The notes: generated by a model not told the origin, from the sequence alone. Positions 53,270 to 57,567 are shown, counted from the first letter of the stretch. The stretch: DNA of 64,000 nucleotides from an uncultured Acidobacteriota bacterium (GCA_963805975.1 CAWDVR010000005.1:352001-416000); one strand, 5' to 3'. Numbers and translations are program-made.

Positions 53270-54487
53270 CTAGCCGGCGTAGAGCTGCAGCTCTTCGGCC
53301 ACCGTGTCCGCCATCTCGATGCAGGTGGGCAGGTGCGGGTGGCGGAGGATGACGTGGCCGTCGGAGAGCAGGGTCTGGATCCAGTTGCGGCGTTGGGCGC
53401 CGATCGGCAGCAGGTCGACCGAGACGATGGCGTCGCCGAAGCGGCCGAGCAGGCGCTCGAGGCCCTCGACCCGCTGGATGCGGCCCTGGCCCTGGGCGCG
53501 CTTGAAGATCACGGCGCTGTTGTAGTGGCGTGCCACCTTCTGGCTGAAACGCCGGTGGCAGACGGCCTCGGCCCAGCCGGTGAAGACGTCGATGTCGCAG
53601 CCGTAGTTCATCAGCTCGGTCGAGCGCGCGCCGGGCGGGCGGGCGCCGATCTCGCCGAACACCGCTTCGCCGTCCGGCTTCAGGAACCACTCCATGTGGG
53701 TGAACCCGTTGGCAAAACCCAGCGCCCGGAGCACCGCCTGGCCCATCTCGCGGCCCGGGGCGAGATCCGCGCGGAACACGTCGCGTAGCGTCACCGTCAT
53801 CGGACTGATCCACTCCACCGTGCGCTGGAGGAGCGGCCGCGGCCGGTACCAGGCGATGTTGAAGTAGCGGATCTCGCCGTCCACGCAGATGGTGTCGAAG
53901 GTGTGCTCCTCACCCTCGATGTACTCCTCGACGCTCACCTCTTCGACGTGCTTCACCAGGGCGAGGACGCGCTCGAGCTCCCTGGCGTCGCCCACGCGGT
54001 GGGTGTCCTTCGAGCCCGCGCCGGCGATCGGCTTGACGATCAGCGGATAGCCGATGCGCTCGGCCGCGGCGCGCACCTCGCGGGCGGAGGCGGCGCGGGC
54101 GTGGCGCGGGGTGCGGATGCCGGCCGCGTCCAGCATCTCCTTCATACGGCCCTTGTCCCGGAAGGGCACGGTCTGTTCGACCGTCATGCCGGGCACGCCC
54201 AGCCGCTCGCGCAGGCGGGCGGCGAGCAGCATGCCGGGCTCCCACAGGCACTCCACGAGGTCGATGGAACGCGCGGCCGGGTGGCGGCGCACGGCGTCGA
54301 TCACCGCCTCCTCGTCCCACAGCGAGGGCACGTGCAGATAGGCGGCGAGGCTCTCGCGGACGCCAGCGGACAGGCCGGCGGCCGGTGTGTCCCCGACGCC
54401 GAGCACCCGGGCGCCCACCCGCGCCAGGCCGCGGGTGAAAAGCGTCATCTCCCACGGGTACGCCGGGGCGATCATCACCACGTTCAT
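53270..54487 (-). CDS. ATP-grasp ligase
   Basis: FRDKGRMK, GYPLIVKPIAGAGS, VEEYIEG, HMEWF..GEIGARPPG. Confidence 0.88.
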   Translation of the reverse strand: MNVVMIAPAYPWEMTLFTRGLARVGARVLGVGDTPAAGLSAGVRESLAAYLHVPSLWDEEAVIDAVRRHPAARSIDLVECLWEPGMLLAARLRERLGVPGMTVEQTVPFRDKGRMKEMLDAAGIRTPRHARAASAREVRAAAERIGYPLIVKPIAGAGSKDTHRVGDARELERVLALVKHVEEVSVEEYIEGEEHTFDTICVDGEIRYFNIAWYRPRPLLQRTVEWISPMTVTLRDVFRADLAPGREMGQAVLRALGFANGFTHMEWFLKPDGEAVFGEIGARPPGARSTELMNYGCDIDVFTGWAEAVCHRRFSQKVARHYNSAVIFKRAQGQGRIQRVEGLERLLGRFGDAIVSVDLLPIGAQRRNWIQTLLSDGHVILRHPHLPTCIEMADTVAEELQLYAG

Positions 54488-54495
54488 AGCGGGCC

Positions 54496-55716
54496 TCAGT
54501 TGTATTCGACGCGCACCAGCGCCACCAGCCGCATCAGCGCCTTGTACACCGCCTCGGTGCTCTCGTGGCGGACCACGGCGTAGCCGTCGCCCTCGTAGCT
54601 GTCGGACTTGGGGGCGCCCGGCTTGGGGAGCTTGGCCTCGACGACCAGGGGGCCCAGCTCTTTCTGCGCCTGGTCGAGCCCGTGCACGGCCTTGACGCGG
54701 CCGCCGCCGGTGCCGCGGAAGAAGGCGGCGCCGGAGGCCCACTTGCGCGGCGGCGGGTTGAACTCGCCGAACACCATGAGCCGCGCCCAGGCGGAGAGGA
54801 AGTCGAACTCGTGCGCCACCGAGACCAGGGTGGTGATCTGGGCTCCCGGCGGCCGGGCCGCGACCTCGGAGATGGCGAGCGAGCCGTCGCGACGCCGGAA
54901 CCACTCGAGATGCGACAGGCCGGTCTCCATCCCCAGGGCCGTCAAGCCGCGGAAGGCCGCTTCTTTCACGTCGTCGAAACGGGGGTCCTCGCGCTCTCTC
55001 GGCAGCAGCACGCACCACTGGATCCAGGGGTTGTGCATGGCCTCGAGAGGCGTCGGCAGGTAGCGCGTCGAGGAGTACCAGACCGGCTTGCCGTGGATCG
55101 ACACGGTCTCGAACGAGTACTCGTCGCCGGTCATGAACTCCTCGAGCAGCACCGGGCGGGTTGGCGAGGGCGGGTTGACCTTGAGCGCCTCTTCGAGTGC
55201 CTCCAGCGTGCCGACGCGGAAGGTGGCCTTGGCGCCAGCGCCGTCCGGCGGCTTCACCACCAGCGGCAGGCCCACCTCGCGCGCGAAGGCGCGGGCCTCG
55301 TCCGCCGTGCCCGCCAGGCGATGGCGGGCGCAGGGCAGGCCGGCGTCGCGCAGCACGGTCTTCATACGGGCCTTGTCGCGGAAGTTCTTGGCCGCCTCGA
55401 CCCCCATGCCGGGGACGCCCAGGATCTCCCGCGCCTGGGCGAGGGGCACCTGGAGCTGCTCGAGCGCGCCCATCAGCCCGTCGAGCCCGCCGATCGAGCG
55501 GCCGAGCTCACGCGCCGCCTCGGCCAGGCGCACCGGGTCGAAGGCGTTCTCCACCCGCCGGTGGCCGGCGATCGAGGCGGCGAGAGTGGGTGGGATCTTG
55601 ACCGCCGGGTCCTGGGTGATGAGGCCGACGCGGACACCGGGCAGAGAGGCCGCGGCCTGCGCGAAGCGGGCCGTGGCCGGCATCAAAAACGGGGCTACGA
55701 AGACGACGTGGGGCAC
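54496..55716 (-). CDS. ATP-grasp ligase (paralogue of the downstream gene)
   Basis: FRDKARMK, GLPLVVKPPDGAGA, LEEFMTG, HLEWF..SEVAARPPG. Confidence 0.88.
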   Translation of the reverse strand: MPHVVFVAPFLMPATARFAQAAASLPGVRVGLITQDPAVKIPPTLAASIAGHRRVENAFDPVRLAEAARELGRSIGGLDGLMGALEQLQVPLAQAREILGVPGMGVEAAKNFRDKARMKTVLRDAGLPCARHRLAGTADEARAFAREVGLPLVVKPPDGAGAKATFRVGTLEALEEALKVNPPSPTRPVLLEEFMTGDEYSFETVSIHGKPVWYSSTRYLPTPLEAMHNPWIQWCVLLPREREDPRFDDVKEAAFRGLTALGMETGLSHLEWFRRRDGSLAISEVAARPPGAQITTLVSVAHEFDFLSAWARLMVFGEFNPPPRKWASGAAFFRGTGGGRVKAVHGLDQAQKELGPLVVEAKLPKPGAPKSDSYEGDGYAVVRHESTEAVYKALMRLVALVRVEYN

Positions 55717-55760
55717 GGGCGGGAAGTATAGCCCGGCGAGCGGGCGTTGCCGGCCTTCTG

Positions 55761-57425
55761 CTAGACGCAGAGATAGGTGACGGCGCTTACCTGGGCCAGC
55801 CTCGCGGGGTTCGGAAAGAGGCCACCGGGCTGCGGGTCGTTGAGGTCGAGATCCTCTACGAGCGCCGTGGGATCGCTTCTCAGCTGCTTGACGTATGCCA
55901 ACGAACAATGGACGTGGTCGGCGACGTTCCGCTCGGGCCCAGTCCCGGTGGGCCACTTTCTCTTTCCACTGACCCTGAGCTTGAACCTCACGCCGTAGAA
56001 GTAGGTTTGCCAGGGATCATCGGCCTGCCGCCTGCACCATTCGATGGCCTTCTTGAGGACGGCTTCGAACCCCTTGAAGGCCATGTTCCCCTGATGGGTC
56101 AGCGCAGTGAGGTTCTCGCTCGTGGTCGTCCCTCCCAGCTCCGCGTTGAGGATGTGGCCCTTGACCCAGCAATAGAAGCGTGCGTTCGAGTGGTTCTGAT
56201 TCGGATCGTTGAGATCGTTGACGGTGGTGCACTCCAAGGTTCCGGGCGTGCTCGACACGCTGGTCAGAGCTCGGGCGGCGGCGGGCCCCAGGATCACGTC
56301 GACGGAGGTGCCTCCTGCTTGGGAGTCGAAGGTACCCCACTCCGGGAGCTTGAAGTACCGAGGCAGATGCGGAATGGGCGGGGTCGTCAGTTGACTCTGC
56401 ACCTGCTGATTGGTGTCCTGCAGAGATTTCAACTCGTTCTTCGGAACCTTTGTTTTCTTCTTGTTGGTGGTCCAAGGCTTGGACTTGGAGGGTCCGCCGC
56501 CACCGGGAACCTGAGGATTGGAGTACGGCGAGTCCCAGGGAAAACTGTGATGAACGGAGTGGCTGACGATGGAGGGGTAGCCGCCCGAGAATTGAGATCC
56601 CGGATAGCCCCCATAGAGGAAGTTCCCAGGAGGAACGCCCGTGAAATAGGGCATTGGCTGGCCCCCGGGGAAGACGTGTCCCTGGAACCCGCCGGGGAAG
56701 TAGTTCCCAGGACCGCCCAGGAAGTTCGGGTTTCCGACAACAGTTCTTTCTCTCGGGAAACTCCTGTTCCTGGACTTGTTCTTTGACTTCCCGCCCCCGG
56801 GCTCCCACCCGCTGTAGTTGCTGTTGTCCACGAAGTCGTCGAGATCCTTCTTCGATCGCTGCGCGACCCCCGGCCGTTGGGGCGGTGCCTGCTTCATCGC
56901 CCCGCTGCGATGAAGTATTGCGGGCAGGATGACCGCGGCCGGCTGCCGCGGTATCACCTGGGCAGCGCGCAGGCCCAGACGCTCGGCTTCGGCTTCGAGC
57001 GCCGGGTCCTGTAGCACGACCAGGCCCGCGCCCAGTGGGTTGCGCACTCGCCCGGACCGCTGCTGGAGCACGTGGGCGATCTCGTGGCCGAGGAGCTGCC
57101 GCCCGGCGCCCGTCCCCGGCACGAACTGGCCGGGGGCGAAGTGGATCTCGGAGCCCAGGGTGAAGGCCGCGGCACCCAGCGCCGAGGCGTGGGGGCCCTC
57201 GTGGATGCGCACCTCGCCGAGGCCGGCACCGAAGACCTCCTCCATGTGGCGGCGCACGCCCTCGGGAAGGGGCCGGCCTCCCCCGGCCGGCAGGCGGAGG
57301 GCCGCCGGCTCGAGCGGGACGACACCGGAAGCCCGGCCGGTGGATCGCTGGATCGGGTCCTGCGCCCGGGCCGACACCGCGGGCAGACCTCGGACGAACT
57401 TGCCCTGGATCACTCCGGAACGCAT
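55761..57425 (-). CDS. DUF4157 (eCIS-associated) domain protein with C-terminal His-Me non-specific endonuclease; putative toxin
   Basis: GRPLP..MEEVFG..VRIH..AFTLGSEIHF..LLGHEIAHVLQQ..LEAEAE; C-terminal KGHILNAELGG..ENLTAL..N..FE. Confidence 0.78.
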   Translation of the reverse strand: MRSGVIQGKFVRGLPAVSARAQDPIQRSTGRASGVVPLEPAALRLPAGGGRPLPEGVRRHMEEVFGAGLGEVRIHEGPHASALGAAAFTLGSEIHFAPGQFVPGTGAGRQLLGHEIAHVLQQRSGRVRNPLGAGLVVLQDPALEAEAERLGLRAAQVIPRQPAAVILPAILHRSGAMKQAPPQRPGVAQRSKKDLDDFVDNSNYSGWEPGGGKSKNKSRNRSFPRERTVVGNPNFLGGPGNYFPGGFQGHVFPGGQPMPYFTGVPPGNFLYGGYPGSQFSGGYPSIVSHSVHHSFPWDSPYSNPQVPGGGGPSKSKPWTTNKKKTKVPKNELKSLQDTNQQVQSQLTTPPIPHLPRYFKLPEWGTFDSQAGGTSVDVILGPAAARALTSVSSTPGTLECTTVNDLNDPNQNHSNARFYCWVKGHILNAELGGTTTSENLTALTHQGNMAFKGFEAVLKKAIEWCRRQADDPWQTYFYGVRFKLRVSGKRKWPTGTGPERNVADHVHCSLAYVKQLRSDPTALVEDLDLNDPQPGGLFPNPARLAQVSAVTYLCV

Positions 57426-57567
57426 ACGACCTCGCCCAGATGTTTTGGAAAAGCTAGCACGGCCCGGCGTCTTTTTGGGTTGGCAGAGGTCCCCACGGTA
57501 GGATCGGCCGGCCGCCGGGTGATGCGATCAGGGTTCCCGAGCCAAACCCGCGCGCTGGGAGGGTCGA

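Follow-up and report, generated by a model that had tools for sequence, protein, structure and literature searches.

The minus-strand gene at 55761..57425 of the DNA analysed here encodes P0001, a protein of 554 residues composed of a carrier domain of a DUF4157 subtype, a linker and a His-Me nuclease. This DNA, hereafter the window, is a stretch of 64,000 nt from an uncultured Acidobacteriota bacterium (GCA_963805975.1 CAWDVR010000005.1:352001-416000), and positions are counted within it. On balance, P0001 appears to be a polymorphic effector, encoded as an orphan, of a canonical type VI secretion system (T6SS), and it is predicted to cleave nucleic acid inside the target cell. The gene occupies a site at which relatives have no insert, three paralogues in the same genome combine the same carrier with different tails, and the carrier subtype is linked to T6SS both physically and genomically. 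In the host genome (G000; 5.36 Mb, 70% GC, six contigs) the gene is located at C5:407761-409425.

The carrier subtype and its link to type VI secretion

The N-terminal module (residues 3-158; 56952..57419, minus strand, as for all features below unless indicated) is predicted to form a single zincin-like domain, which includes the VIQGKF strand and the RVRNP insert. The AlphaFold2 (AF2) model of this head has a mean predicted local distance difference test score (pLDDT) of 89.4; residues 3-12 are predicted to be ordered, and residues 13-32 are modelled with low confidence. Its best structural match is the effector domain of VgrG2b (6H56; Z 8.5, root mean square deviation (rmsd) 3.9, 127 residues aligned), and a Foldseek search with the head gave no match at E<=0.001. 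The sole Pfam match in the protein is eCIS_core/DUF4157 (PF13699; residues 52-125, 57051..57272), well over the cut-off (E 5.4e-25, 87.8 bits versus 22). It contains HEIAH at residues 114-118 in invariant alignment columns, and the HExxHxxQ-E residues are H114, E115, H118, Q121 and E144/E146. These features bear out the DUF4157-type HExxH domain that an earlier note on this DNA had proposed. In agreement with the same note, inspection of the protein revealed no signal peptide.

The subtype was defined by sequence and not by neighbouring genes. The VIQGKF motif (residues 5-10; 57396..57413) is its marker, and the segment QQRSGRVRNPLGAGLVVLQD (residues 121-140; 57006..57065) defines it as the T6SS-linked subtype. 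VIQGxF is found in 34 of 36 subtype proteins versus 1 of 91 other DUF4157 rows, and a profile search collected 1717 proteins at E<=1e-40, with the motif present in 109 of the top 120. In a tree of the 78-column core, from which the insert was excluded, the subtype label is clustered (3 changes versus 31 when shuffled), the tree itself being mostly unresolved, so that monophyly is not claimed. The known T6SS marker domains have no Pfam or NCBIfam match in P0001, and an atlas search with residues 1-190 returned eCIS_core clusters only.

The host genome contains six PF13699 genes, of which four belong to the subtype. The remaining two are located in a locus of an extracellular contractile injection system (eCIS) and lack the subtype insert. 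The heads of the three subtype paralogues of P0001 show 47-57% identity and have VIQGxF and the QQRxGRVRNPxGxGxxVxQD insert in common, and their tails differ. The four tails comprise the nuclease, a deaminase-like tail (HxE/PC), a papain-like tail (H/C) and an uncharacterized fourth one; the deaminase and papain calls were made from motifs by eye, and neither of these two tails has a Pfam match. Together with the empty site described below, the paralogues agree with the earlier description of a dispersed effector with a swappable payload.

Among 93 distinct subtype copies, 22 end no more than 60 residues past the domain, 8 are papain-like, 61 have other tails and the remaining 2 are truncated. 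The DNA available around the copies includes T6SS genes for 12 of the 22 short, 4 of the 8 papain-like and 14 of the 61 other-tail copies. The short and papain-like forms stand mostly right after tssG or before vgrG, a placement that suggests a conserved accessory role for both. Payload-bearing copies also occur inside T6SS clusters (L022, L025, L028, L147, L149 and L208). Pfam scanning of 59 tails identified GNAT (8), F-box-like (2), EndoU (2), OTT_1508 deaminase (3, one above the cut-off), DUF5636 (1) and a second eCIS_core (2), in addition to weak HNH, WHH and NS_2 matches, and most tails gave none. Frequently, as in L030, L031, L143, L149, L169, L208 and L212, a GNAT domain comes after the DUF4157 subtype, either by itself or ahead of a domain resembling a toxin; DUF4157-GNAT-deaminase is among these arrangements, and the GNAT domain might modify or restrain the payload.

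In the host genome, the papain-like copy (C6:158.8k) is located between clpV and vgrG of a T6SS cluster (C6:136-167k) that contains tssK, L, M, A, B, C, hcp, tssE, F, G and clpV, followed further on by vgrG and PAAR. Its orthologue occupies the same place in G001 (same genus) and G002, and in G003 (same family) it neighbours these accessory genes too, on a contig that is short. The TssB of this cluster scores higher to P. aeruginosa HsiB1 than to Vibrio VipA, and the closest TssB structure is PDB 9N4V. A search for eCIS structural genes, as proposed earlier, revealed two loci, C3:889-920k, which holds the two remaining PF13699 genes, and C2:1022-1034k. The two eCIS loci thus coexist with the T6SS. 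The C2 locus lacks a PF13699 gene, and none of the open reading frames (ORFs) scanned there gave an AAA match.

The surveys of other genomes are given as descriptive counts, since the genomes are related and many are incomplete. Across eight genomes of the family, the subtype is present in G000 (4 copies), G001 (1 and a divergent one), G002 (5), G003 (5) and G006 (2), which are exactly the five TssC-positive genomes. The eCIS tube (PF06841) is present in three of these five, with no match in G003 and G006; G004, G005 and G007 possess the tube and lack the subtype. For GTDB, counts cover the first 50 of at least 74 loci, in 47 genomes. Among these, TssC is found in 12 of 14 subtype genomes versus 3 of 33 genomes with other DUF4157 proteins (G071, among these 33, being unpublished); for the tube the counts are 5 of 14 versus 32 of 33. 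T6SS genes flank 6 and eCIS genes 0 of the 15 subtype loci listed, whereas the other 59 DUF4157 loci listed have T6SS genes at none, eCIS structural genes at 17 and only an eCIS-type AAA gene at 11.

A pattern scan of metagenomes, for which flanks were obtained for 76 of at least 130 loci, gave T6SS genes on 21 of the 71 contigs listed and eCIS genes on none; for listed contigs with at least 8 kb of sequence available the counts are 14 and 0 of 34. In a second family, around G043 (101 genomes), strong subtype matches (at least 180 bits) were found in 15 genomes. All 15 possess TssC (base rate 74/101) and 5 possess the tube (24/101), and 7 of the 15 strong copies lie 5-6 kb from a tssC; among weaker matches, 6 of 9 are within about 15 kb of an eCIS tube gene. 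The loci listed belong to Pseudomonadota, Planctomycetota, Acidobacteriota and Myxococcota, and cultured Azospirillum species carry the form found in T6SS clusters. A phylum-wide search with the subtype profile matched 0 of 400 other genomes at E<=1e-36, a weak test in which 11 candidates were scored per genome. A plasmid of a cultured Niveispirillum (L291:11797-13122) carries a VIQGxF-type copy with a divergent insert and a tail of no assigned family, with no T6SS or eCIS gene within 12 kb.

The earlier note linked DUF4157 domains to eCIS cargo and suggested loading in trans. Loading into an eCIS is not supported as the likeliest route, because the subtype lies within canonical T6SS clusters or co-occurs with them and was not seen next to eCIS genes. 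Use of the T6SS rather than an eCIS by P0001 is therefore considered probable.

Two further protein groups were observed around the T6SS cluster. A repeated low-complexity motif, [AP][AP]H[VI]xAA[VLI]...AQAK, occurs in about 11 proteins of the host genome (C1:441025, 443177, 444193, 445016 and 731188; C2:252921; C3:566404; C4:362063; C6:157127, 159418 and 162129), one more match, in a 14,225-codon frame, being likely due to chance. Most of these proteins lack DUF4157, three are encoded within the T6SS cluster, and xQR and variable tails follow the motif; two of them carry strong stretches resembling a nuclear-localisation signal (NLS), namely PAKRRRV in one and KRKKRR with KKKRKPKK in the other. 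The motif, which is absent from P0001, may be another hallmark of this set of effectors. In addition, an unannotated small protein is encoded directly before vgrG in G000, G002 and G003 (L006:9115-9756, L029:829-1365), without a Pfam or NCBIfam match at the cut-off. Homologues stand beside short subtype genes in L145, L166 and L195, and a similar-looking family is near the subtype in nine loci. Its H...AGE...GH pattern resembles that of Ntox43-type toxins.

The predicted nuclease payload, the junction and the insertion site

Downstream of the carrier, P0001 contains a low-complexity stretch rich in Gly, Pro and aromatic residues (residues 228-312, 56490..56744; one charged residue in 85), followed by the His-Me (beta-beta-alpha) nuclease domain (residues 345-554; 55764..56393). 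The order of linker and nuclease agrees with the earlier reading, the GH/N/N/E residues being intact (G423-H424, N427, N438, N447 and E454) and the His-Me fold being predicted. A phmmer search with residues 345-554 found 132 proteins at E<=0.001. From these, an alignment of 94 rows (the query and 93 homologues) was built, leaving out very long, very short, weak or partial matches. H424 and N438 are conserved in 94/94 rows, N447 in 93/94 and E/D at position 454 in 94/94. By analogy with EndA and Sda1, we take H424 to be the general base and N447 and E454 to form the metal site.

The AF2 model of the nuclease domain (pLDDT 88.8) matches EndA and NucA best in Foldseek (E 7e-4 to 1e-3), then EXOG, Sda1 and EndoG, and also Serratia nuclease and EsaD. 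The VIA structural match to Sda1 has Z 11.3 and rmsd 4.0 over 153 aligned residues, and the top 10 rows are all His-Me nucleases. Endonuclea_NS_2 (PF13930) is weakly matched by 71 of the 94 rows at E<=0.01 (best E 5.3e-06). For the tail of P0001 itself, Pfam and NCBIfam scans gave no match, the PF13930 cut-off not being reached, and a profile search of PDB sequences gave none either. The payload almost certainly has the His-Me nuclease fold of the Sda1/EndA/NucA/EndoG group, and it is likely to be an active nuclease. The domain is promiscuous: 94 of the 132 homologues have at most 300 residues, and 8 match our HExxH pattern. The nuclease profile found 2 matches in 40 relatives, none within the family, and tblastn with the nuclease found none on plasmids.

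The carrier and the payload meet at VAQR (residues 187-190; 56856..56867). The best GC change-point, at codons 188-190, coincides with the end of this motif (residue 190, 56856), and its statistic was reached by 0 of 2000 codon shuffles and by 0 of 624 host genes of 450-650 codons. The step in GC that the earlier note had seen at the junction is therefore real and sharp, falling from 0.749 to 0.606. Its description of the payload as compositionally foreign is partly overstated, because the GC expected for the same amino acids with host codon usage already falls from 0.766 in the head to 0.662 in the tail, so that about 0.10 of the 0.14 drop reflects amino-acid composition. On the same ground, wholly foreign DNA was rejected as the cause of the step. 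A synonymous shift does exist and is modest (GC at synonymous third positions, GC3s, 0.861 in the head versus 0.780 in the tail; Fisher p 0.022; genome median 0.927).

The codon usage of the carrier, formerly called host-like, is so only in part. The head lies at about the 6th percentile of called genes, as ranked with our own gene caller, which is biased toward host-like genes; residues 161-190 already stand at 0.76. Equal-sized genome windows with GC as low as the tail make up 1.2%. The step is a family trait, as tail GC is lower in 56 of 57 subtype payload genes and tail GC at third codon positions in 43 of 57.

The gene lies between an ATP-grasp gene, whose GTG start (55716) is 44 nt after its stop codon, and a divergent glgC (57568) 142 nt upstream. 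These neighbours are directly joined by about 74 nt in G001 and about 110 nt in G003, and therefore the gene represents a lineage-specific insert of about 1.75 kb between the two divergent promoters (55737..57495, no strand, edges approximate). In the remaining three genomes searched, the ATP-grasp and glgC neighbours are not adjacent. Both -10-like boxes are kept at the empty sites of G001 and G003: TATACT of the downstream ATP-grasp gene (55725..55730), in line with the previous claim that this gene has its own -10 box, and TAGGAT upstream of glgC (57499..57504, plus strand), which reads TAAGAT in both relatives. A promoter consensus scan reported 0 sites at its threshold.

Scoring with host codons gave a positive value for the 554-residue frame and negative values for overlapping frames, with the exception of a 45-residue antisense frame and the upstream extension of the downstream gene's frame. 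No coding-like ORF was found in either intergenic gap or in other frames, and hence there is no adjacent immunity gene, as the earlier note had concluded from the lack of room. An antisense or alternative-frame immunity ORF was rejected on its negative coding scores, and the first 28 rows of an immunity survey of relatives showed no recurring small downstream gene. A missing immunity gene is a known trait of DUF4157 toxins (PMC3482391, PMC8213781).

Around the insertion site, the tandem ATP-grasp genes (53270-55716, minus strand) are kept as a pair in all five genomes searched. The first of them is nearly leaderless, its -10 box being just 8 nt from the start, and the pair adjoins glgC, a probable glgA and a probable malQ, the latter two read by eye. 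Elsewhere in the window, a long aminopeptidase-like ORF (60899-63949, minus strand; motif by eye) shows apparent repeated frame changes near its 3' end, and the reading continues through overlapping ORFs to about 60741.

Delivery route and target cell

We infer that the VIQGxF/RVRNP DUF4157 module may act as a recognition or loading tag for the T6SS, in trans from the cluster on contig C6. The module may also restrain the payload, or release it by cleavage near the xQR motif. The payload may target eukaryotes, for example protists or fungi, with a lysine cluster leading it to the nucleus.

Several observations weigh against the T6SS reading. Delivery by this route is read from linkage and co-occurrence in sequence data, the genome also holds two eCIS loci, and DUF4157 is a validated feature of eCIS cargo. 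An intermediate match of 155 bits in the second family, left unclassified (G482:C4), lies beside an eCIS tube gene. TssC is common in that family anyway (74/101), and 59 of the 74 TssC genomes lack the subtype. No TssC match was found in 2 of the 14 subtype GTDB genomes listed (G049 and G054), and only 3 of the 132 nuclease homologues (P0001, P0002 and P0003) carry the present carrier subtype. In addition, as assembled, tssC of the host genome is in five pieces (four frameshifts) and tssF in three (two frameshifts). Frameshifts were found in only 2 of 99 control orthologues, and the T6SS of this genome could therefore be decayed.

All six single-base frameshifts fall within 3 kb (C6:145.3-148.3k; L018 and L019), and the rest of the cluster is unbroken. 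The tssC and tssF pieces show 78-93% identity to G001, no more diverged than their intact neighbours. The public runs listed comprise one DNA run (0.06 share) and none of RNA. Thin contigs from the DNA run (low depth over the region), whose strain is not established, pass three of the six sites unshifted. The pattern fits a locally unpolished assembly, and an assembly fault is favoured. If the T6SS were nevertheless decaying, P0001 would be a stranded or silent effector, acquired as T6SS cargo, unused or weakly expressed and in no need of immunity. The frequency of the frameshifts relative to the controls and the lineage-specific occurrence of the gene would fit such a history, which we regard as improbable given an ORF and both active sites that are intact, otherwise unbroken T6SS core genes, the identity of the broken pieces to G001 and the unshifted, though low-depth, public contigs.

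Ordinary dispersed eCIS cargo, with one of the two eCIS particles taking the protein into its tube by way of the N-terminus, is an unlikely explanation, although a better one than decay. The C3 and C2 loci would provide the particles, and the second lacks its own PF13699 gene. The domain marks eCIS toxins (PMC8213781, PMC11297309), a haloarchaeal contractile system secretes dispersed DUF4157 toxins (PMC11566945), and the broken tssC and tssF would also speak for this reading. Against this stand the subtype genomes without a tube match (2/5 in the family, 9/14 of those listed in GTDB and 10/15 in the second family), the absence of the subtype from tube-positive, TssC-negative relatives, and the lack of eCIS genes in the available flanks of all 15 GTDB loci and all 71 metagenome contigs listed. 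Moreover, eCIS loading needs a disordered N-terminus (bioRxiv 10.64898/2026.05.27.728243), whereas the first 10 residues of P0001 are predicted to be part of the folded domain, the model being of low confidence at residues 13-32. Least probable of all is a protein that is not delivered, namely a cytoplasmic, protease-gated nuclease for abortive defence or programmed lysis with DUF4157 in a regulatory or auto-processing role. It would account for the missing immunity gene and signal peptide, and both a restraint on toxins (PMC8213781) and their autoprocessing (PMC3482391) have been suggested as functions of DUF4157, but it leaves the repeated tssG/clpV-vgrG placement of the subtype and its F-box tails unexplained.

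A eukaryotic target of P0001 has about an even chance, the hints being the F-box tails, the missing immunity gene and NLS-like clusters. P0001 carries a putative one, the lysine cluster NKKKTKV (residues 321-327; 56445..56465), by a pattern that we devised ourselves and post hoc. With this pattern, clusters are found in 11 of 57 subtype tails versus 1 of 56 other DUF4157 tails and 28 of 2438 host proteins. The excess is modest, as composition shuffles of the subtype tails yield 4.4 on average and 12 at most; in the nuclease homologues, the count of 17 of 81 compares with 9.5 on average and 17 at most after shuffling. Entry into fungal nuclei has been described for T6SS DNases (PMC12574953, PMC13577199), and one nuclear T6SS DNase, TseN, has an immunity protein (PMC12574953). 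Like the shuffles and this immunity protein, the many tails typical of antibacterial toxins (HNH, EndoU, deaminase) count against a eukaryotic target, and a cytoplasmic DNase would still threaten its producer. Our guess is that the producer tolerates the nuclease through gating by the head. In subtype proteins of G002 and G003 (L118:187-1509 and L119:184-1512, both minus strand), an F-box-like domain, which is a module directed at eukaryotes, comes after a lysine cluster.

Relation to known systems and significance

The architecture of P0001 is of a known kind. What is probably new is that one branch of the eCIS marker domain is linked to T6SS, and the gene likely marks a family of T6SS toxins that has gone unnoticed. 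Toxins that join DUF4157 to a nuclease and lack an immunity gene have been on record since 2012, when Zhang et al. listed Tox-NucA (GH, N, N, E) together with PVC-metallopeptidase (PMC3482391). That DUF4157 marks eCIS toxins, that their linkers are long and that immunity genes are missing was reported in PMC8213781, PMC11297309, PMC12210884 and bioRxiv 10.64898/2026.05.27.728243, and the domain is used as a near-diagnostic eCIS toxin marker, including in a machine-learning predictor (PMC11297309). In T6SS, DUF4157 has been described as a toxic C-terminal domain or cargo (PMC6899460, PMC3482391). Single mentions of DUF4157 are found in PMC6653060, PMC9545535 and PMC12691689, and none in the available portions of bioRxiv 10.1101/2021.10.07.463556, PMC11837500, PMC13577199 and PMC12574953. 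The literature covered, which included few subscription papers and no supplements, did not yield any account of a DUF4157 subtype that, at the N-terminus, marks cargo of canonical T6SS; such loci may be listed in the supplements of PMC3482391 and PMC8213781.

P0001 resembles the PVC-metallopeptidase (PF13699) polymorphic toxins with Tox-NucA in its constant HExxHxxQ-E head, long linker and variable toxin, and likewise in the GH/N/N/E nuclease payload, the several copies per genome and the frequent lack of an immunity gene (PMC3482391, PMC8213781, PMC11297309). Those toxins are assigned to PVC/eCIS systems, whereas the present subtype has the VIQGxF strand, the RVRNP insert and a link to a T6SS of the TssB/TssC/Hcp/ClpV type. 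The C-terminal metallopeptidase of VgrG2b (Wood et al. 2019, PMC6899460; PDB 6H56) is also a DUF4157-type zincin in a T6SS context. There the zincin is the C-terminal toxin itself, and here it is an N-terminal carrier before other payloads or a short stand-alone gene of the cluster. In Halogeometricum borinquense, dispersed DUF4157 proteins are secreted in trans by a machine that the authors termed a T6SS. This system differs in being archaeal, in its Cis-type structural proteins and in the downstream immunity partners of its toxic members (PMC11566945).

TseN and TafE, T6SS DNases with a nuclear-targeting signal, offer a functional model for the step at a eukaryotic target (PMC12574953, PMC13577199). 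They belong to other nuclease families, and TseN adjoins its VgrG, chaperone, PAAR and immunity gene (PMC12574953). Compared with the His-Me endonucleases Sda1, Spd1, EndA, NucA, Serratia nuclease and EsaD (PF13930), the tail of P0001 likewise has the predicted fold and the H/N/N/E site, but it shows 10-16% identity, lies below the Pfam cut-off, has no signal peptide and is preceded by a low-complexity, lysine-containing linker. The N-terminal effector markers of T6SS, namely MIX, FIX, RIX, WHIX and PIX, combine a constant N-terminal domain with polymorphic C-termini and are often orphan. In distinction to these markers, the head of P0001 is a DUF4157 zincin.

A broader reading, which we put at slightly short of an even chance, is that the VIQGxF/RVRNP branch of DUF4157 was adopted by one canonical T6SS lineage as a module for effector recognition and processing. 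It would then have two forms, an accessory gene located between tssG/clpV and vgrG, on its own or fused to a papain-like domain, and the unvarying head of dispersed toxins, an immunity-less and largely anti-eukaryotic arsenal of nucleases, deaminases and F-box proteins in at least four phyla. If this is true, the branch would represent a new T6SS effector marker, a cargo tag that moved between two injection machines, and a simple motif would give a list of new T6SS effectors. If one DUF4157 branch belongs to T6SS, a share of current eCIS assignments would be wrong. Two questions are made testable, namely the function of DUF4157 and how bacteria tolerate nucleases without immunity.

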